DNA of 64,000 nucleotides from Eledone cirrhosa (Eukaryota): positions 184,698,001 through 184,762,000 of the forward strand of contig OZ024741.1 of the NCBI GenBank assembly GCA_964016885.1, in the 5' to 3' direction. Under the pieces are notes generated by a model that had not been told where the DNA came from, ran no database searches, and saw only the letters and a program-made list of their open reading frames with translations. Below, piece after piece: positions 33,182 through 48,576 of the stretch. Every line of letters starts with the position of its first letter. Position 1 is the stretch's first letter. The position numbers and the translations under genes are program-made.

Positions 33182-36100
33182 CCTTGAATCTCAGTCATTG
33201 ATGTTGGTTAACTGGAAAGTCCGTTGGATTGAATATCAAGCCACTACCTGCAGCCTCAGATATTCAGGACGTATCGGAGGGTTCTTGCCGTTCCAAGCAA
33301 GCATGCCTTTTGAAGCGTTCCAAAAAGCGTGAAGGGGCCGATTTTCTTTAACCATCCCTGGAAACCTTTGGAGATAGTCCCCAGTGCGCCTATGACAATC
33401 GGGATCACTTTGACTTCATGGCAGTTCCAAATCCTTTTCACCTCCCACTTTAGGTCCTGGTATCGGTTAATTTTCTCCCTCTCCTTCTCTTGCACTCTCG
33501 TGTCGAACGGGCAGGCCACATCCACAATCAGGCACGATCTTTTTTCTTTGTCCACAACCACCAGGTCAGGTCTATTGTGCTCCAGTTTTTTGTCCGTCTG
33601 TATCCTAAAATCCCACAGCACCTTCACCTGACTGTTCTCCATCACCGCCTCTGGCCTATGCTCATACCATTTCTCAGAATGTGGTAGATTGTTTACTTTG
33701 CACAGGTGCCAGTGGATCACCCTGCCCATCACATCGTGTCTCCAGCCCTTATAGTGGGTCTGGGCTAGGTGTTTACACTCGGACACAATGTGAGCCACAG
33801 TCTCCTCTCTCTCTCCACAGATCCTGCACAGTGGGCTAGCCTCCTCCTTGTAGATATGGTGCTTCAACCACTTCGTTTTGAGGGCCTGCTCCTGCGCAGG
33901 CATTAGCATTCCTTCTGTAGCCTTTTTGAGGTCTCCTCTTCTCAACCAGTTCCATGTCTGTGGATCTCTAAATTCAGTTTTCTCAAAGAAGGTACTATGA
34001 AGGGATTTTCCCTTAAGGCTGCTCTTCCTCCTTGATGTTATTTCCTCCTTGGGTATCCCCTGGCCTACTGTCCCCTCCTTCAGTACAGCTCTGAGCATTG
34101 GCTCCTTACTATAGGTCACGTATTTGTATAGGTTGTTTTTCTCCATCTGAACACAGTCCTCTATGCTGATAAGACCTCTTCCACCCTCAGATCTCCTTAG
34201 GTAGAGTCTATCGACATCACTCCTCTTGTGGAACATGTTGTAGATAGTCAATAGCTTCCTAGTCTTCCTATCCATTTCTTTTTGTTCAGCAACATTCCAT
34301 CTCAGAATTCCCGCACTGTACCTAATAATAGACACAGCTCGGGAATTTACTGCGCTTATGGCATTTCTGCTGTTCAGATGTGACTTCAATACGCTCCTTA
34401 CTCTCCGAATGTATTCAGTTCTTAACAATTCCTTCATTTTTTTGTTCTTTATGCCATCAGCCTCCAGAACGCCCAAATACTTGTATCCTTCCTCAGAGTC
34501 AATTTCCTTTATCATCTCACCTGTTGGTATCTGGATCCCGTTACTTCTGCTCAACCTACCCCTCCTCATCACAATGACTCCACATTTACCAATACCAAAC
34601 TGCATACATATATCACTGCTGAAAATACGGACAGTGTCAACAAGCACATCCAACTCCTTCTCACTTTTCCCGAAGAGCTTAAGATCGTCCATGAAGAGGA
34701 GGTGATTGATGGTAAGCTCTCCCCTTCCCAACTTGTATCCTGCTCTCACTTTTCGCAGCATAATGGTCAAGGGCATCAGGGCAAGGACAAACAACAGAGG
34801 GGACAGGCTATCTCCCTGGAAGATACCTCTCTTGATCTTCACGCTTCCCAAGGATACTCCAGTTGATGTCAACTCTGTCTCCCAGGACCCCATACTCCTG
34901 CCCAGCAACTGTCTGATGTTATCTGCCACCCTGAAGATCTCCAGGCTTTTGGTGATCCAGGAATGAGGCACCATGTCAAATGCCTTTCTGTAGTCTATCC
35001 ATCCCATGGCAAGATCAGTGTGTCTCCTCCTGCAATTCCCCATTACCATCTTATCAATAAGCAACTGGTCCTTTGTACCACGTGACTTCTTTCGGCATCC
35101 TTTCTGTTCGTCCGGCAACAAGTTGTTTGTGTGGAGGTGATGGTAGATTTCCTCAGACACAATGCTCGTCAACAGTTTCCACATTACGGGCAGACATGTG
35201 ATAGGTCTATAGTTGGTAACATCATTACCCTTGATTCGGTCTTTCATTATCAGAACTGTGGTACCTTTTGTCAACCACTCTGGCACCTCACCCGACACCA
35301 AGCAGTCATTGAACATGGCCGTCAGCTTCGGGTGGAGGGATGTTAAATGTTTAATCCAATACCCCTGCACACCATCTGGGCCTGGTGATTTCCAGTTGGT
35401 TAGTTTTTTGGCTTGCCCCTTAAGAGTTTCAACTGTGATACTCAAATCAGTCTGTTGCTGTGCCTGCTCACCGATCTCCCTCTGTACTGTCTCAATCCAC
35501 CCTGCCTGGGCATTGTGTCTAACATCCTGCTCCCATATTCTTCTCCAGAATGTTTTAGCTTGTTCCGCCCCAGGGATCAAGTCGTTGCCTCTTTCTTTCC
35601 CCTCAAGCTGTCCAAACAGCATCTTCTGGTTGTTGTCGAACATGCGGTTCTGTTTATACTGACTGACTCTGTTCTCGTATCGCCTGATTTTGGCACTCTT
35701 TGCTACAATGCGTTGCTTCAATTCCTCTATGATAATATTTAGCTTTTTACTCCTAGTTTTGTATTTTATTTCCAGTCTATTTTTAGTGCCTATGTTTTTT
35801 AGTGTCCCATTCAGTAGTGACTCAAGCTTTCCTATGTCATTTCTCATTTCCCCGATTTGCCCACTCAGTCGCTTCTTCCACCACGGCTCTGCTCTTTCTT
35901 GTCTGTTGTTTCCTCTCGCTTTTATACCAAGTAGTTTCCTCACCGTATTTGCTGTTGCTTTGAGGATGTTGTTGCACTGGTGAAGACTCCTCGCCTCAAG
36001 GTATGGGATGACTTTGTTTACCTTAGCTGTTGTTTCTTTTAACTTTTTCCTGTCTACAAATCTTAGGTTCATAGGTCTCCCACTATCATTGTTCAACTCA

Positions 36101-36556
36101 TCTACCACTAAATTTAGGATGTCAACCGAATCTTGTCCTAGCCCGTCAGCATTCATCTCCTCAGTGGCCGTTTCTCTGTTCCAGGTATTATTTATCTCAG
36201 TATTCAGATCATTGTCTGCTTCGGGTGGTTCCTCCGTTCTCAGGACCTCCTCACCTTCATTTCCCGCCGGCTCGCTTGTCTGGCATACTACACCCGCCAT
36301 CTCCAAGCCATTCTCTCTGCTCAGTTCCTCCAGTTCCAGCTCGCTTATCCACCCATTAGTTCTTATTACCCGAGCCTGCCCGGCCAATTTTTGTTCATCT
36401 AATTTAAATAAACCAATCTCGTTCCAGATGTTATGCATCCGTCTCCTGTAGCCCCTCTCCTTGGGGTTACTTTTCAGGTAGCATTGCATAACAGTTCTAT
36501 TCAATTCTTTCGTCCAGTTGGTTCTGGCCCCTTTCCTTCTTCTTCTTCCTCCAACA

Positions 36557-36558
<2 letters not shown>
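33182..36558 (-). mobile_element. R4/Dong-type REL non-LTR retrotransposon, family A, slightly 5'-truncated
   Basis: Single long ORF, short 3' UTR, (TAA)n on both sides in element orientation. Dong elements are known (TAA)n-specific R4-clade elements. Confidence 0.9.
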
Positions 36559-36596
<38 letters not shown>

Positions 36597-36639
36597 AGCT
36601 GCATTTATCTTGCTTTATATTCATACGAGTTATCACCAT
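33256..36639 (-). CDS. Uninterrupted RT + CCHC + PD-(D/E)xK restriction-like endonuclease polyprotein (1127 aa from first in-frame ATG)
   Basis: WKSPGPDGVQGYW, NYRPITCL, EQKG, WIDYRKAFD, GIFQGDSLSPLLF, LLFMDDLKL, YKYLG, GGRGL, CRICGEREETVAHIVSEC, RHD, RPDLVV..IVDVACP..EKINRYQDL. The N-terminal ~27 codons come from the neighbour's 3' UTR and (AAT)n. Confidence 0.9.
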
Positions 36640-38997
36640 GTCACAACCAGTGACCTCAAGAGACAACAAGGTCCGCCATCTTCAAGAAAGAACATACATA
36701 CTCACACATGCATCTTTAGTGTTTAGACTTGTGATCTACTTATATTGACAGATTCTTCCTTAGTATATGGGCAGTTCCCATTAGTACTATCTTTTGTATT
36801 TCTCCTATACGCGGGTTTCCTGGGATTTGCGATAAGTAATCATTAGACCCCTTAGGTATCATTCCTAGAGCGCCTACAACTACTGGTATTGTTTTAGTTC
36901 TCAATTTCCACATTTTTCCAATTTCTATGTCCAGGTCCTTATACTTGCCCAATTTTTCAAATGTTTTTATAGATACATTCTTGTCTATTTGAACGGACAT
37001 ATCAATTAGCAGGCATACCCTCTTTTTAAAGTCCTTCAATATTATATCAGGTCTATTTGCATCTATTTTTCGGTCTGTTTTGATGCTAAAGTTCCACAAG
37101 ATTGAGATGTGATCTTTTTCAAGTATGGGAGGTGGTTGATGCTCCCACCAATTCTTTTGATGGGGCAGGTCAAAATGCTTACACATTATCCAATGTATGT
37201 ATTGTGCAACTCTGTCATGCCTGTTTAGGTATTCGGTTGGACTGAATATTGAAATTATATGGTCAATGGTCTCTGGTTGTTTTTTACATACACGGCACAA
37301 TGGGTTGCATCCATTTTTTATTATGTTGGCTTGGTAATTTTTTGTTAGCAGACACTGATCTTGTGCTGATATAATCAGTCCTTCCGTCTCCGATTTCAGT
37401 CCAGAGGATGCCAACCACTGATGGGTTAAAGTTTTGTCAACATCAGGATTGTTAGCTCGTTCTGGGTATTTTCCATACAGAGGCTTTTCTTGCCATTTCT
37501 TAGCCAGTTTCTGTAGCAGTTCTTTCTTTGCAGTTACTTTTACCTGCTTTGCTTTTTCTGTGTTTTCCATTTCAGCAGTAAATGGGACTTCTGAAATGTG
37601 TAGTCGATTACTGTATCTTTGTGCATCTTTTGTAATGGAATATGATCTTTTGATGCTTTCGTGTTTCAAAACGAGTTTGATCATCCAATCATGTGATTCC
37701 CTTAGATATGTAGATAATCCAATTGTTGCAGTTTTCAACGCAATGTCTAACTGGATTAACCCACGTCCTCCTTCTTTCCTAGGGAGATATATTCTATCTG
37801 TATCTGCCTTAGGGTGATGCATTCTGTGCATGGTTAAGAATTTTCTAATTTTTGTATCGAGCCTACGGATCTCTGTGCTTGACCAGTTGATGACATTGTA
37901 ACTGTAGGTTACTACTGGTATGGCAAGCGTGTTTATGGCATCGATCCTATTCCTTGCATTCAATTCCGTTCTTAACATTGCTCTTACTCTGCGGTAACAT
38001 TCCTTCCTTATCCTTTCCCTCATTGTCGAGTGCTTGATTCCGTCTCCTTCACAAACACCTAGATATTTGTAACTTTCCTCTTGATCAAGTTCTCTTATCA
38101 CATTCCCTCGATCAAGATTAATGTCTGAACTCTTCAGGAGCTTTCCTCTGGTGAACGTTGCTTTGGCGCATTTATATAGTCCAAACTCCATTTTAATGTC
38201 ATCACTGAACTACTCCACAGTGGATAATAGCCCTTGCAATTGTTCATCATTTTTTGCAAAGAGTTTCAGGTCATCCATGTAGAACAAGTGATTAATGGTT
38301 TTATCATAGACTTTATATCCATGTTTTGTTTCATTGAGCATTTTACTTAATGGTATACGTGCGATGCAGAATAAAGCGGTGATAAAGAGTCACCCTGAAA
38401 AATTCCACAATTAATATTAACTTCTCCAGCTTCCAGTGATTTTGTTTCACTATTCAAAAGGAGTGTCGTTTTCCATATCTTCATACTGAATGACAAAAAC
38501 CTCCTGACAACGGGGGATATTTTGAAAATCTCTAAACAATTTTTCAATCCAACTGTGTGGCAAACTATCGAATGCTTTTTTATAATCTATCCAAGCAATT
38601 GATAGATTTTTGTGTCTATTATGACAATCTTCCAGTATCATTTTGTTAACCAAAAGCTGATCCTTACAGCCATATGAGCCTCGTTTACAGCCTTTCTGCT
38701 CAATGGGAAATAGGTCATTTGTTATCAGGTGGTCATATGTATATTCAGTTAGGACTGATGTTAAAATTTTATACATTGTGGTCAAGCAAGTTATCGGTAT
38801 GTAATTTTTGGGATTGTTTGTCTCATCATTCTTCGGAAGCAGGAATGTAATGCCGTTAACTAGCCATGATGGTATCTTTTCTGGCTCCTTAACTATTTCA
38901 TTGTAAAGTTGGGCTAACAGCTCATGAGACTCTGTGAAGGCATTTATCCAAACATTTTGTATTTTGTCCTTTCCTGGGGAATTCCATTTGCTGGTTT
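36596..38997 (-). mobile_element. R4/Dong-type element, family B, copy B1 (5'-truncated, frameshifted)
   Basis: ORFs 38450..39136, 38347..38547, 36740..38191; HLFYMDDLKLF at ~38260-38295; RHD and RPD motifs. Confidence 0.9.
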
Positions 38998-39035: not shown

Positions 39036-42000
39036 CAGTTGCATTTATCTTGCTTTATGTTCATACGAGTAATCACCAAGTCACAACCAATGACCTCAAG
39101 AGACAACAAGGTCCGCCAATATTCAAGAAAGAACATACATACTCACACATGCATCTTTAGTGTTTAGACTTGTGATCTACTTATATTGACAGAATCTTCC
39201 TTAGTATATGGGCAGTTCCCATTAGTACTAACTTTTGTATTTCTCCTATACGCGGGTTTCCTGGGATTTGCGATAAGTAATCATTAGACCCCTTAGGTAT
39301 CATTCCCAGAGCGCCTACAGCCACTGGTATTGTTTTAGTTCTCAATTTCCACATTTTTCCAATTTCTATCTCCAGGTCCTTATACTTGCCCAATTTTTCA
39401 AATGTTTTTATAGATACATTCTTGTCTATTGGAACGGACATATCAATTAGCAGGCATACCCTCTTTTTAAAGTTCTTCAATATTATATCAGGTCTATTTG
39501 CATCTATTTTTCGGTCTGTTTTGATGCTAAAGTTCCACAAGATTGAGATGTGATCTTTTTCAAGTATGGGAGGTGGTTGATGCTCCCACCAATTCTTCTG
39601 ATGGGGCAGGTCAAAATGCTTACACATTATCCAATGTATGTATTGTGCAGCTCTGTCATGCCTGTTTAGGTATTCGGTTGGAGCTATAGGACTGCACATT
39701 GAAATTATATGGTCAATGGTCTCTGGTTGTTTTTTGCATATACGGCATAATGGGCTGCATCCATTTTTTATTATGTTGGCTTGGTAATTTTTTGTTGGCA
39801 GACACTGATCTTGTGCTGATATAATCAGTCCTTCAGTCTCCGATTTCAGTCCAGAGGATGCCAACCACTGATGGGTTAAAGTTTTGTCAACATCAGGATT
39901 GTTAGCTCGTTCTGGATATTTTCCATACAGAGGCTTTTCTTGCCATTTCTTAGCCAGTTTCTGTAGCAGTTCTTTCTTTGCAGTTACTTTTACCTGCTTT
40001 GCTTTTTCTGTGTTTTCCATTACTATATCTTTGTGCATCTTTTTTAATGGAATATGATCTTTTGATGCTTTCGTGTTTCAAAACGAGTTTGATCATCCAA
40101 TCATGTGATTCCCTTAGATATGTAGATAATCCAATTGTTGCAGTAAAGAGTCACCCTGAAAAATTCCACAATTAATATTAACTTCTCCAGCTTCCAGTGA
40201 TTTTGTTTCACTATTCAAAAGGAGTGTCGTTTTTCCATGTCTTCATACTGAATGACAAAAACCTCCTGACAACGGGGGGTAGTTTGAAAATCTCTAAACA
40301 TTTTTCAATCCAACTGTGTGGCAAACTATCGAATGCTTTTTTATAATCTATCCAAGCAATTGATAGATTTTTGTGTCTATTATGACAATCTTCCAGTATC
40401 ATTTTGTTAACCAAAAGCTGATCCTTACAGCCATATGAGCCTCGTTTACAGCCTTTCTGCTCAATGGGAAATAGGTCATTTGTTATCAGGTGGTCATATG
40501 TATATTCAGTTAGGACTGATGTTAAAATTTTATACATTGTGGTCAAGCAAGTTATCGGTATGTAATTTTTGGGATTGTTTGTCTCATCATTCTTCGGAAG
40601 CAGGAATGTAATGCCGTTAACTAGCCATGATGGTATCTTTTCTGGCTCCTTAACTATTTCATTGTAAAGTTGGGCTAACAGCTCATGAGACTCTGTGAAG
40701 GCATTTATCCAAAAATTTGGTATTTTGTCTTTTCCTGGGGATTTCCATTTGCTGGTTTTTCTTAGAGCCAAGCGCAACTGTTCAACTGTGTTATATTTTC
40801 CCATATTTGTTCCTCAAGTTGAGCTGTCTGTCCATGGGGCATGTATGTTATAAACTTTTTCTTCGGCCCAGATCTTTTCCCAGAATTCTTGCACTTCCTT
40901 CTTGGGTGGTATTGATTTAGCAGTTATTGTTGACTTACCAATTTTTCTGTAGAAGTTTCTTTGGTTGTTTTTGAACATATTATTGTCCTTATAGAATCTA
41001 GATCGTTTTTCAAAGCGCCTTATACGAGCAGCTTTGGCCGACACTTTTTGCTTGATTATTTCTATCAGCATGTCTATGTCACTTGTTGATTTTATACTGT
41101 ACTTTCTTTTCAATTTTCTAAGTTGAGTTTGTTTAACATGTTCACCTACTTTATAGTTTGTTAAAATTTCTATGTCAGATCGGAGAACGTTTATTTGTCG
41201 ATTGATGTTCTCTTGCCAAGTAGATTTCTTGTGGCAATTCCTTTGTCTTTTCATCTTCACTCCACATATGTGAGTGGTGACTTTATGCGATGCATTATAG
41301 AGATGATTTAAATCAGTAATGTTTAGTTTGTTTGTGATGATAATGTTTTTGAGAATTATGTTAGTCTTGTGTATTATCTTTCGGTTCTGTTTGGAGTTCT
41401 GGATCTTAGGGAGGGTGTCTCGTTGCCCCATGTCAGATTCTTTCATTTTCATCCATTCGATCATAATTTCATCCTTCAAGTTGGCAAGTTCATTCTCATT
41501 CATTTCTTTATCATTTACGATCTCATTATTTTCATTTGGAGTTTCATCTTGAGCATGCACTCCCTCCACTTTTTCGATCCTTTCTTTAATTTGTTCTGTT
41601 GCCAGTGATTCCGCCCCAACCCTGGGATTCGAAGTGTTACAATTTACCTCGGTTTCACTGACACATGTTTCATTTTCCCTTCGCTGACTTTGTGGTAATA
41701 GTTTGATCTGATCAATTTCTATATGAGTTAGTAACTTTTTTTTTACAATATTTCTTCGTATATTGGCTAGTTTGTTACTGTCAATATAGCCTCTGTTTTC
41801 GGGATGTTTCTTTTTCCAGTTGATATATGTCTGTTCTGTATTCGATGTATTTGATGGGTAGTACATGGCAGTGTAGAAAGCCTCAAGGACTTCTTTATTA
41901 TCTTCCCTTGACCATTTTTCTCTCTTTTTCTTTGGATTTCTTTGTGGTGAGCATGGAGGGCCAACGGTAGGAGTATTCCGGTTATGGGAGGTCTCCAGCT

Positions 42001-42292
42001 CCGAAGTGATGGGAAGGTTTGAACGATTAGCTGATTTTTCGACCCCAGTCTGGTTCCTCTCTGAGGGACGCGGCCCTCTTTTACCCGGGTGGCGGCCGAT
42101 CCGGTATGAGATGTTATCATTAGACATTTACTTTATTTTGTCGTGTTTTATCCTTATCCGCCAAGGGGTAATAATTCCGTGTTACCACTTCTAGAACGAG
42201 TGTCAACCAAGACTAGAGGGGTCGTTCTCCCATAGAGACACGGCTATTCCCCGCCGGCCGCCATCCCGGTATTTCTTGGTCACGGGGTTTTC
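39036..42292 (-). mobile_element. R4/Dong-type element, family B, copy B2 (5' end retained, internal RT deletion)
   Basis: ORF starts MSNDNISYRIGRHPGKRGPR at 42127; REKWSREDNKEVLEAFY. The junction at ~40145 joins QGDSL directly to TATIGL. Confidence 0.9.
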
Positions 42293-46502: not shown

Positions 46503-47003
46503 GTATTTCCGTCGGAAAGTATACGTCTACGTACTATTACGTATAAGCGGGTGGTTGAGTATGTGTATTTACTCTTTTACCCTTTTACCTGTTTCAGCCA
46601 TCCGACTGAGGCTATGCTGGGGCGCCGCCATGTTTATGTTATTTATGTATTTTTCCCCTAAATCCTTTTTGCCCGTTTTTTCAGCCTCACTTTCATATTT
46701 CCTAAATTTTGTTTTCAAATCCAAATTAAATAAAAACACCATGTTATTTATTCATTCATTCCGACGACTGAAGACAGACATAACATCTGCCATCAAGAAA
46801 CCACTGGTAAATGAAATAATTATCTTATGTTGTTTATTACATAACTATATATATATATATATATATATATAATTATATCCTTAATTTGTTTTGCGAGATT
46901 TCTCATCTGAAAACGTGTGTTGAAACATATATTTTTATACTTTGGGAGGGTCATGTTTCCAATAAATACACGCACTTCTTGGTTTTCACTTCAACTTATT
47001 ATA

Positions 47004-47072
<69 letters not shown>

Positions 47073-47124
47073 GACGTAAAATAAGAAAATCTTAAAAATT
47101 AAAAATTAACTTACTAAAATTTTC

Positions 47125-47206
47125 ACTCCAACTAATTAGTTTCTGTAATGGGATAAAGATAGTTACGCAATGTAACCATCGAGAATTCATTACGTCATCA
47201 GGGAGT
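47125..47206 (-). ncRNA. Type I hammerhead ribozyme motif (family H2), minus-strand copy
   Basis: ACTCC-CTGATGA-long stem II-GAAAC-TAATTA-GTT-GGAGT. Confidence 0.72.
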
Positions 47207-47557
47207 CTATTCTCAGCTAAGTCTCCAGGCAATGCGCGGACACTAGGGACTCATATAAAAATAATAATTCGGTGGATGGAACAGCTAGCGGGGGGCTGAA
47301 TTCCATAGCACTACTAATTCATTGTAGTGAAAAAGTTCACTGTCTCTGGTTAAATGGCAGATTCTAAAGAATCAATCACGTGACACTGAGGCTAGTCAGA
47401 AGGAGTGGGATGGTATAATGACAAAAGCCTACTACCAATACAATGAATTAGTAGTGCTATGGAATTCAGTCCCCGCTAGCTGTTCCATCCACCGAATTAT
47501 TATTTTTATATGAGTCCCTAGTGTCCGCGCATTGCCTGGAGACTTAGCTGAGAATAG

Positions 47558-47639
47558 ACTCCCTGATGACGTAATGAATTCTCGATGGTTACGTTGGGTA
47601 ACTATCTTTATCCCATTACAGAAACTAATTAGTTGGAGT
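47558..47639 (+). ncRNA. Type I hammerhead ribozyme motif (family H2), plus-strand copy
   Basis: Stem I ACTCC/GGAGT; core CTGATGA 47563-47569; stem II GTAATG/CATTAC extended by GATGGTTAC/GTAACTATC; GAAA 47621-47624; palindromic AACTAATTAGTT; predicted cut after 47634. Confidence 0.72.
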
Positions 47640-47809
47640 GAAAATTTTAGTAAGTAAGTTAATTTTTTAATTTTTAAAATGTTCTTATTTTACGTCTTTT
47701 ATATAATTGTTCTGCATCCTCCTGCATTGAACCACATAGGTACTATGACATAACTTATGTATTTGCTAGCATTAGTGTACATCTGTACGCATATGTTGGT
47801 AAATATACT

Positions 47810-48576
<767 letters not shown>

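Follow-up and report, generated by a model that had tools for sequence, protein, structure and literature searches.

An inverted repeat with a hammerhead ribozyme motif on each strand in Eledone cirrhosa is a head-to-head double copy of a 537-bp noncoding repeat, probably laid down by a Penelope-like element

The locus described here lies in the genome of Eledone cirrhosa (assembly GCA_964016885.1, contig OZ024741.1), within a window of 64,000 nucleotides, the whole stretch of DNA that was analysed (positions 184,698,001 to 184,762,000, forward strand); coordinates given without a locus name are those of the window. Between two microsatellite tracts the window holds two long inverted arms, each with a hammerhead ribozyme (HHR) motif, which a previous, sequence-only reading took for an inverted-repeat mini-element carrying a ribozyme on each strand. 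We find that the window repeat is a head-to-head double copy of a 537-bp noncoding repeat and not a discrete mini-element. It is not an element in its own right because its junction is not shared, its arms end at different unit positions (u360 and u483) and the real unit is the 537-bp direct repeat. Unit positions, u1-u537, follow the reference copy L019:1520-2056, in which the HHR core starts at u223 and the predicted cut lies at u294|295; motif scores come from R1, a covariance model made from 99 family copies. The features are as follows.

46994..47068, no strand: (TA)n microsatellite, in contact with the left arm's outer (3') end, read from the sequence.
47069..47437, minus strand: left arm, including what had been called the spacer; one unit copy, u1-360, by blastn to the reference unit.
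47125..47206, minus strand: HHR motif of the left arm, predicted cut between 47130 and 47129; R1 122.4 bits, E 3.7e-28.
47312..47327, no strand: 16-nt insertion in the left arm, private to the window copy (1 of 43 family copies read at the site).
47438..47453, minus strand: head-to-head junction, where the minus-strand array passes u1 into the end of the preceding unit (~u537-522).
47453..47828, plus strand: right arm, a unit copy of ~u110-483; blastn 95.5% over u110-483.
47558..47639, plus strand: HHR motif of the right arm, predicted cut after 47634; R1 119.1 bits, E 2.6e-27.
47813..47915, no strand: (CT)n(TA)n microsatellite flanking the right arm on its outer side, read from the sequence.

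The ~260-bp inverted arms first reported at this site are real. A repeat search of the window recovers ungapped arms at 47104-47293 and 47471-47660 (190 nt each, 98% complementary), and an alignment of the arms that admits a few indels extends them to ~47070-47331 and ~47439-47699, around a spacer of ~105 nt; the arms of the pair are 95-98% alike. Likewise, the (TA)n beside the repeat and its want of coding capacity are borne out, as the longest stop-to-stop frame overlapping 47069-47705 has at most 91 aa; a frame of 117 aa (47678-48031) has nearly all its length to the right of the repeat and crosses the microsatellite. The right limit of 47705, however, was set too short: homology to the unit runs 123 bp further, to 47828, and this extra stretch (u361-483) forms a one-sided 'tail'. 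On the left, where coordinates 1500-1873 of locus L001 correspond to 47064-47437 of the window, the 3' end of the arm (u360) points outward, at the (TA)n. Comparison of the junction string with the reverse-complemented unit end places the turn in the middle, where the minus array, after ~16 nt of the preceding unit, switches to the plus arm at ~u110. On the right, the CT part of the microsatellite prolongs the unit's own short CT/TA stretch at u472-483, and other copies ending at u472-483 also then run into (CT)n(TA)n. The left and the right-hand (TA)n are likely the target tract. In the left arm, the 16-nt insertion repeats 47438-47453 in mirror image and makes the palindrome longer; it appears to stem from a template switch made at the inverted repeat as the DNA was replicated. 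As a marker of a subfamily it was rejected, being unique among the 43 copies.

Both arms carry the full type I HHR core that had been recognised in them, CUGANGA...GAAA with an NUH site 3' of helix III. In the plus copy the order is ACUCC, CUGAUGA (47563-47569), C (47570), GUAAUG, an internal loop, a 9-bp hairpin, CAUUAC, A (47620), GAAA (47621-47624), the helix III palindrome ACUAAUUAGU, U47634, after which the cut is predicted, and GGAGU; the mirror copy on the minus strand (47206-47125) has the same anatomy. Helix I (ACUCC/GGAGU) has 5 bp, the cut site is GUU, and helix II extends over ~50 nt, made up of the 6 bp of helix IIa (GUAAUG/CAUUAC), the internal loop and the second 9-bp hairpin. 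Passages of PMC4209133 give as hallmarks of the HHRs carried by Penelope-like elements (PLEs) a short helix I of 4-5 bp, a long helix II, one extra nucleotide lying between A9 and 10.1, and a helix III that is palindromic. The unit shows the same 'minimal' form, with its 5-bp helix I, an extra C230, G231-C279 as the 10.1-11.1 pair and the palindrome AACUAAUUAGUU; the G10.1-C11.1 pair does not directly adjoin A9 and G12. The C-A mismatch that closes helix II is indeed present in both window copies, but its treatment as a defect in need of repair does not hold. It is not damage, because 154 of 157 copies have the C after A9 together with the A before G12, which also persist in subfamilies only ~70% identical, and because the C is the extra nucleotide described for PLE HHRs in those passages; the next G-C pair is present in 150 of the 157.

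Among subfamilies the core varies only at N7 (U or C). When the reference is compared with six divergent copies (69-87% identical), the longest invariant block is CAGAAACUAAUUAGUUGG, the 18-mer at the cut site, and the cut-site triplet and the helix III palindrome are unchanged in all six. In a second sample, where the triplet and helix III are fixed by the choice of search motif, CTGANGA lies upstream of the anchor in 72 of 98 cases, the other 26 being 5'-truncated or having point changes. The 12-nt palindrome is predicted to form an intermolecular helix of -10.8 kcal/mol, in keeping with the dimeric action that has been proposed for motifs of this kind.

The genome that harbours the repeat comprises 3.0 Gb in 1,796 contigs. 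Most matches to a 641-nt query made from the window repeat are confined to its first 392 nt and often come back at intervals of 537-543 bp, and dissection of 30 loci, the source of the reference unit, reveals units in direct tandem, one straight after another. The genome contains 653 exact copies of a 25-mer that covers helix I, the core and the first part of helix II, and 12,847 exact copies of an 18-mer (A + GAAA + helix III + cut site + GG); given that the reversed control patterns return 0 matches for both, the HHR motif is not a product of chance. Tandem neighbours of the 18-mer lie 471-571 bp apart, a range that points to a superfamily of related units, and the 537-bp repeat itself is present in hundreds to thousands of copies. 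The unit has a GC content of 35.8% and no long frame; its RNA, folded as a circle, is predicted to reach -131.1 kcal/mol (z = -6.0) with 61% of bases paired. Since the units abut without a frame between them, the repeat is non-autonomous. The earlier assignment to a PLE-type type I HHR in a noncoding, non-autonomous, retrozyme-like or PLE-derived repeat is supported, and the 537-bp repeat is an ordinary member of this known class.

Compensatory change supports helices I and II. It was measured in two alignments of related copies from this one genome: A2, with 99 distinct haplotypes of the 537-bp family, and A3, with 48 haplotypes of the superfamily picked via the 18-mer, an anchor that fixes helix III and two helix I bases. 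In A2, 95.5% of cells are paired and 38 hold double changes, where shuffles give 10.2 and none of 500 attains 38. In A3, 93.9% of cells are paired (80.2% in shuffles) and 162 hold double changes, as against 62 in shuffles, a number again reached by 0 of 500; slid controls give 10-21. Helix I is 96.7% and helix IIa 98.3% paired in A3, where one helix II pair appears as GC 15, CG 13, UA 13 and AU 7 times and is never unpaired. Helix I alternates between subfamilies (ACUCC/GGAGU in some, ACUUUC/GGAAGU in others), and the distal hairpin of helix II has been swapped for unrelated hairpins, some of them UUCG-capped. The three pairs of helix III are invariant in A3, but they lie inside the 18-mer used to pick the copies; in A2 helix III is 97.6% paired with no double change.

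The anatomy of the insertions was read at 99 loci, 76 of them taken in positional order from the first listed places of the 25-mer on one contig (C1) and 23 from a search with the 641-nt query, four of the latter selected for matching the whole inverted repeat. Among the arrays lying off locus edges, 3' ends fall at u360 in 66 of 163 and at u472-488 in 69 of 163, and a (TA) run of at least four repeats follows within 40 nt of the 3' end in 138 of 161, compared with 76 of 389 random flank positions. The 5' ends are scattered over the whole unit, apart from a cluster at u295-314. Arrays have a median length of 535 bp, 82 of 161 are shorter than one unit, and the longest has 3,429 bp. Where neighbours lie on opposite strands they face each other with their 5' ends, head to head, in 65 cases and stand tail to tail in 3 (gaps of 55-963 bp). 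In 61 of the 65 head-to-head pairs the gap is at most 30 bp, mostly between -10 and +22, often with a few bases of overlap. The outer ends obey a further rule: 49 of 50 classifiable pairs unite an arm ending at u~360 with one ending at u~480, where half would be expected (binomial p = 4e-14). The two arms of a pair differ in helix II by 1.6 positions on average over 24 pairs, and random copies by 5.7. The window pair, with u360 on the left and u483 on the right, obeys the end, pairing and (TA)n rules. Target-site duplications are unreadable because the insertion lies inside (TA)n.

These features are those of PLE insertions. According to passages of Craig et al. 2021 (PMC8557442), such insertions are highly 5'-truncated, often form partial tandems and are often flanked by an inverted copy that is itself 5'-truncated; a 'tail' of 30-40 bp is often found at one end only, and there is a bias toward microsatellites, (TA)n in the Naiad clade. 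Each of them, 5' truncation, partial tandem, inverted twin, one-sided extension and microsatellite target, is found in the family. Opposite-strand pairs of PLE HHRs 100-700 bp apart are also on record (Cervera & de la Pena 2014, passages of PMC4209133). The suggestion made from the sequence, that inverted pairing in the style of PLEs accounts for the layout, is supported.

A question remains, is the arm-spacer-arm structure itself a mobile or functional mini-element, of the kind of a miniature inverted-repeat transposable element or a foldback element, built to place a ribozyme on each strand or to yield double-stranded RNA for ADAR or small interfering RNAs (siRNAs)? Its arms are long and 95-98% alike, a read-through transcript of the pair is predicted to fold into a ~260-bp hairpin (-459.5 kcal/mol, z = -43) that buries both ribozymes, and four other loci match the whole 641-nt query at 85-87% identity. 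In those four loci, however, the junctions are u473|106, u17|64, u29|52 and u442|195, where the window has u1|110. No other sampled head-to-head pair shares the junction of the window, and among the 61 with gaps of at most 30 bp only two loci, L079 and L080, repeat each other's junction coordinates. The arms end at different unit positions, so that there are no true terminal inverted repeats, homology continues 123 bp beyond the proposed end, and the 537-bp unit is far commoner as direct tandems and single copies. Junctions that differ between independent pairs and outer arm ends that differ within a pair are not those of a foldback element. We therefore give a mini-element next to no credence: the layout is a one-off truncation, an outcome that the sequence-only reading had itself named, and its source is a 537-bp non-autonomous unit and not a long PLE. 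Any role of the hairpin as double-stranded RNA, be it as a substrate of ADAR or of siRNA production, would be pure conjecture from the predicted fold.

The recurrent pair at L079/L080 (G000:C1:111936967-111947263) is one head-to-head insertion present twice, 5.3 kb apart, with the junction u186|u239 and identical arm lengths; it is a local duplication that carried the insertion along.

Could the family instead be satellite-type DNA that spreads and inverts by unequal exchange, template switching and hairpin repair, without an RNA intermediate and with the HHR as a relic? Tandem arrays of up to 3.4 kb and the 16-nt insertion in the window, which extends a palindrome as a DNA template switch would, are in keeping with such a history. 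Yet the copies are dispersed, the 100 matches of the 25-mer listed on contig C1 occupying 78 separate places, and arrays are short, with a median of 535 bp and 82 of 161 below one unit. Target-primed reverse transcription leaves just this signature, 3' ends that are fixed and 5' ends that vary, and compensatory changes keep the RNA helices. Nor can the arms of a pair be fold-back copies of each other, since their outer ends differ, and this rules out that the second arm arose as a fold-back copy of the DNA. Satellite-type spread is in our judgement very improbable.

The explanation that we prefer, and that we hold to be probable, is that the window repeat consists of two 5'-truncated copies of the 537-bp noncoding HHR repeat, set head to head in (TA)n by one integration in which a PLE reverse transcriptase and endonuclease primed on both strands. 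The template would be unit RNA transcribed from tandem copies. In a cut (TA)n tract both 3'-OH ends would prime reverse transcription, each DNA end at one of two internal UA-rich RNA sites, u355-360 and u476-483; the two cDNAs would extend toward the 5' end of the RNA and be joined in the middle, often by a few bases of microhomology. The HHR, acting as a predicted dimer via its 12-nt palindrome, would cut the RNA at u294/u295 and so fix the furthest 5' limit of a copy. In vitro, purified PLE protein cleaves and extends both DNA strands, and its reverse transcription starts at two internal RNA sites, the tail being the stretch between them (Frangieh et al. 2024, PMC11167929). HHRs on both strands are then likely a by-product of twin insertion and not a matter of design. 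The fuller proposal, that in vivo a single event primes at u~360 and u~480 from both (TA)n ends and its cDNAs run to a 5' end made by the HHR, is tentative, and we think it somewhat doubtful. If it is true, the C/A-looped HHR with its long helix II has activity in vivo and determines the template, in contrast to the single PLE examined in vitro, and animal retrozymes owe their copying to twin priming by PLEs and not to a simple rolling circle.

In a few arrays, namely L105 with arms of 536 and 543 bp, the left arm of L002 and the right arm of L013, an arm has almost exactly the length of one unit. A polymerase that went once round a circular template and stopped at its own start would give such arms, with the 5' end equal to the 3' start.

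The part assigned to the ribozyme draws on the cluster of 5' ends near the predicted cut. Of 163 arrays, 29 start in u295-314 (19 in u295-304 and 10 in u305-314), where ~6 are expected, at ~3 per 10-nt bin, and the upstream edge is sharp, with 8 ends in u285-294. Among 39 arrays with BLAST 5' ends at u280-u316, read by eye, about nine have their 5' end at u294-297; the two arms of L016 begin at u295 and u296, and at L093 a 26-nt inverted stub ends exactly at u295. An independent second sample agrees, 9 of 77 occurrences of a downstream probe lying at a 5' end, at u293-u306. A peak at u309 was discarded as the artefact of a 4-nt indel, the true ends being at ~u298-308. Arrays that start in the cluster mostly have ~590-625 or ~700-737 bp, lengths that equal one whole unit and the remainder up to u360 or u480; the others have 60-91 bp. 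We infer that the template often has its 5' end at or near u295. Such an end is what cleavage by the HHR would give; alternatively, it may mark a transcription start or an AT-rich joining hot spot. A minor pile-up of 5' ends at u214 (6 of 163 arrays), four bases upstream of helix I, could reflect a stop after copying of the structured motif or the shared ancestry of the copies.

Several observations weigh against the preferred reading or its ribozyme part, and they concern the sample, the motif, the 5' ends and the enzyme. The sampled loci stem from a single contig, where exact motifs guided their choice, and 4 of the 99 were taken for matching the whole repeat. A search with Infernal and Rfam, the check that had been suggested for the hammerhead, was negative: the whole window has 0 matches at gathering score, and within 46900-47900 not one hammerhead family appears at E<=10. 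The extra A between C11.1 and G12 falls outside the description of PLE HHRs in the passages of PMC4209133. For the isolated motif the lowest-energy fold has -21.8 kcal/mol and the HHR fold -19.3 kcal/mol, and the competing fold pairs the core CUGAU with helix III. PLE HHRs reportedly cleave poorly in vitro (passages of PMC4209133), and in the in-vitro PLE system HHR cleavage is protein-assisted and dispensable for insertion, with no reads ending at the cut site (PMC11167929). The 5' cluster is broad (u294-310), without a spike at u295, and its region is AT-rich with a small palindrome that could favour joining. A typical copy, running from u295 through one unit to u360 or u480, moreover holds an uncut internal site, so that cleavage would be partial or regulated. 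On the side of the enzyme, blastn with the unit and R1 found no match in 20 PLE (GIY-YIG) loci, a small sample of the more than 10,000 GIY-YIG candidates in the genome, and the matches to RVT_1, PHD, GIY-YIG, DDE and endonuclease domains among frames beside the arrays (24 of 62 of at least 170 aa and all 18 of at least 200 aa were scanned) were assigned to other insertions that share the (TA)n.

Some of these points are shared by an alternative in which the insertions are PLE-mobilised but the HHR-like motif does not cleave, serving as a structured signal for protein binding or priming, while the 5' cluster marks a transcription start or a microhomology hot spot. The lack of an Rfam match, the slightly more stable competing fold, the low activity of PLE HHRs and the dispensability of cleavage in vitro would all suit such a motif, as would the 1x1 C/A loop that 154 of 157 copies have at the helix II base and the spread of the cluster over u294-310, where it overlaps the AAAAUUUU palindrome. 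But the sole variable core position, N7, is the one that is free in the HHR consensus, and the cut-site triplet and helix III palindrome do not change in the six divergent copies. The cluster has an edge, with 8 ends at u285-294 and 29 at u295-314, and the HHR of an axolotl retrozyme with a U-U mismatch where helix II starts does cleave (Cervera & de la Pena 2020, passages of PMC7229834). We consider a non-cleaving motif rather unlikely.

As to the enzyme of the twin insertion that we favour, the genome holds 10,597 GIY-YIG candidates, of which all 150 that were scored lie above the cut-off, and the long frames among them combine RVT_1 with a C-terminal GIY-YIG. An autonomous PLE, with a reverse transcriptase and GIY-YIG frame between pseudo-long terminal repeats (pseudo-LTRs), was not found for the family among the 20 PLE loci sampled and the frames scanned beside the arrays. 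A reverse transcriptase frame ~100 nt downstream of the motif at L146 and L197 was examined as a candidate and rejected as an unrelated element, with (TA)n in between and no HHR after its stop. Beside family arrays at L015:353-1255 (minus strand) and L137:3529-4380 (minus strand) lie 5'-truncated PLE frames ending in GIY-YIG, and at L015 a (TA)n tract adjoins the array. Several PLE-type elements may use the (TA)n tracts as common landing sites.

The remaining Rfam results are of a different kind. In the 1 kb scanned by E-value around the repeat, a match to mir-998 is spurious, as it stems from the repeat's hairpin centre, and the other matches are microsatellite-driven. A like scan of six PLE loci contains no hammerhead among the best 150 of 239 matches, nearly all of which are to microsatellite-driven microRNA models. 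Elsewhere in the window, a 1,141-aa open frame at 33256-36681 (minus strand; RVT_1, E 5.8e-23) is probably a retrotransposon of the long interspersed nuclear element type, and no Pfam match was obtained for the neighbouring minus-strand frames at 36740-38209 and 40814-42127.

As far as the window goes, the outcome is deflationary: its "two-ribozyme mini-element" is a routine by-product of PLE-type insertion. For the family, the head-to-head rule, the rule of one of each end and the targeting of (TA)n give structural, and not merely correlative, support for the proposed movement of animal retrozyme-like repeats by PLE machinery. The family preserves unusually clean footprints of PLE-type twin integration, and the 5' cluster is a possible trace of ribozyme cleavage; the cluster offers a cheap genomic test of whether HHR cleavage shapes the template, a matter left open by the only in vitro study of a PLE. 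Standard Rfam annotation, further, misses an HHR variant whose 3' half occurs ~12,800 times in one genome, and counts of ribozymes in animal genomes are accordingly likely too low.

How does the repeat compare with known systems? With the Rfam family Hammerhead_1 (RF00163) the motif shares CUGANGA and GAAA, an NUH site (GUU), the three-helix junction and 5' and 3' ends in helix I. It differs in giving no match to that model at E<=10, in the C/A that breaks the base of helix II, and in a helix II ~ten times longer than in the 45-position model. Canonical RF00163 matches at or above gathering score do exist in the genome and lie in a different repeat (18 of the 74 candidates scored). That repeat, seen at L051-L060 (e.g. 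G000:C3:10277077-10277121), has a canonical type I HHR with a short helix II, and at L056 and L060 HHR cores stand on both strands ~56 nt apart, so that it forms inverted pairs as well. A further HHR-like motif at L200:7936-8031 (minus strand), to which R1 gives 34.5 bits, also has a long helix II, but its helices differ, its G10.1-C11.1 pair is direct and its site is GUA; a family copy stands ~200 nt away, within the same (TA)n-rich stretch. Long-helix-II variants may already be on record elsewhere, for instance among the "HHR_half_core" cases of PMC8557442.

Animal retrozymes, for which an origin from PLE pseudo-LTRs has been proposed (Li, Clavereau & Pollet 2026 preprint, passages of 10.64898/2026.07.22.740005), are among the known systems that the family most resembles. 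Like the non-LTR retrozymes in passages of PMC7229834, the family consists of noncoding direct tandems of a few hundred bp with a type I HHR in each unit, a low GC content (35.8% here), a self-paired unit RNA (predicted here) and many co-resident PLEs, and its 537-bp unit falls within the 51-972 bp reported for vertebrate retrozyme families. Unlike them, it has a PLE-like 'minimal' HHR with a ~50-nt helix II, where the HHRs described in those passages are canonical with loop-loop contacts, and most of its arrays are of one unit or less. Inverted twins, a one-sided tail and (TA)n targeting, as seen here, find no mention in the searched passages of PMC7229834 and 10.64898/2026.07.22.740005.

Unlike in PLEs, no reverse transcriptase/GIY-YIG frame lies between the repeats, the unit is without similarity to the 20 PLE loci sampled in this genome, and the tail of ~120 bp (u361-483) exceeds the 30-40 bp in passages of PMC8557442. 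Compared with the PLE HHRs in passages of PMC4209133, the motif adds an A between C11.1 and G12 and, in helix II, the internal loop and second 9-bp hairpin, and it shares with them the 5-bp helix I, the long helix II, the extra nucleotide after A9, G10.1-C11.1 and the small palindromic helix III. The insertions themselves resemble those of PLEs (passages of PMC8557442; PMC11167929) in their truncation, their tandems, their inverted copy, their extension at one end and their microsatellite target.

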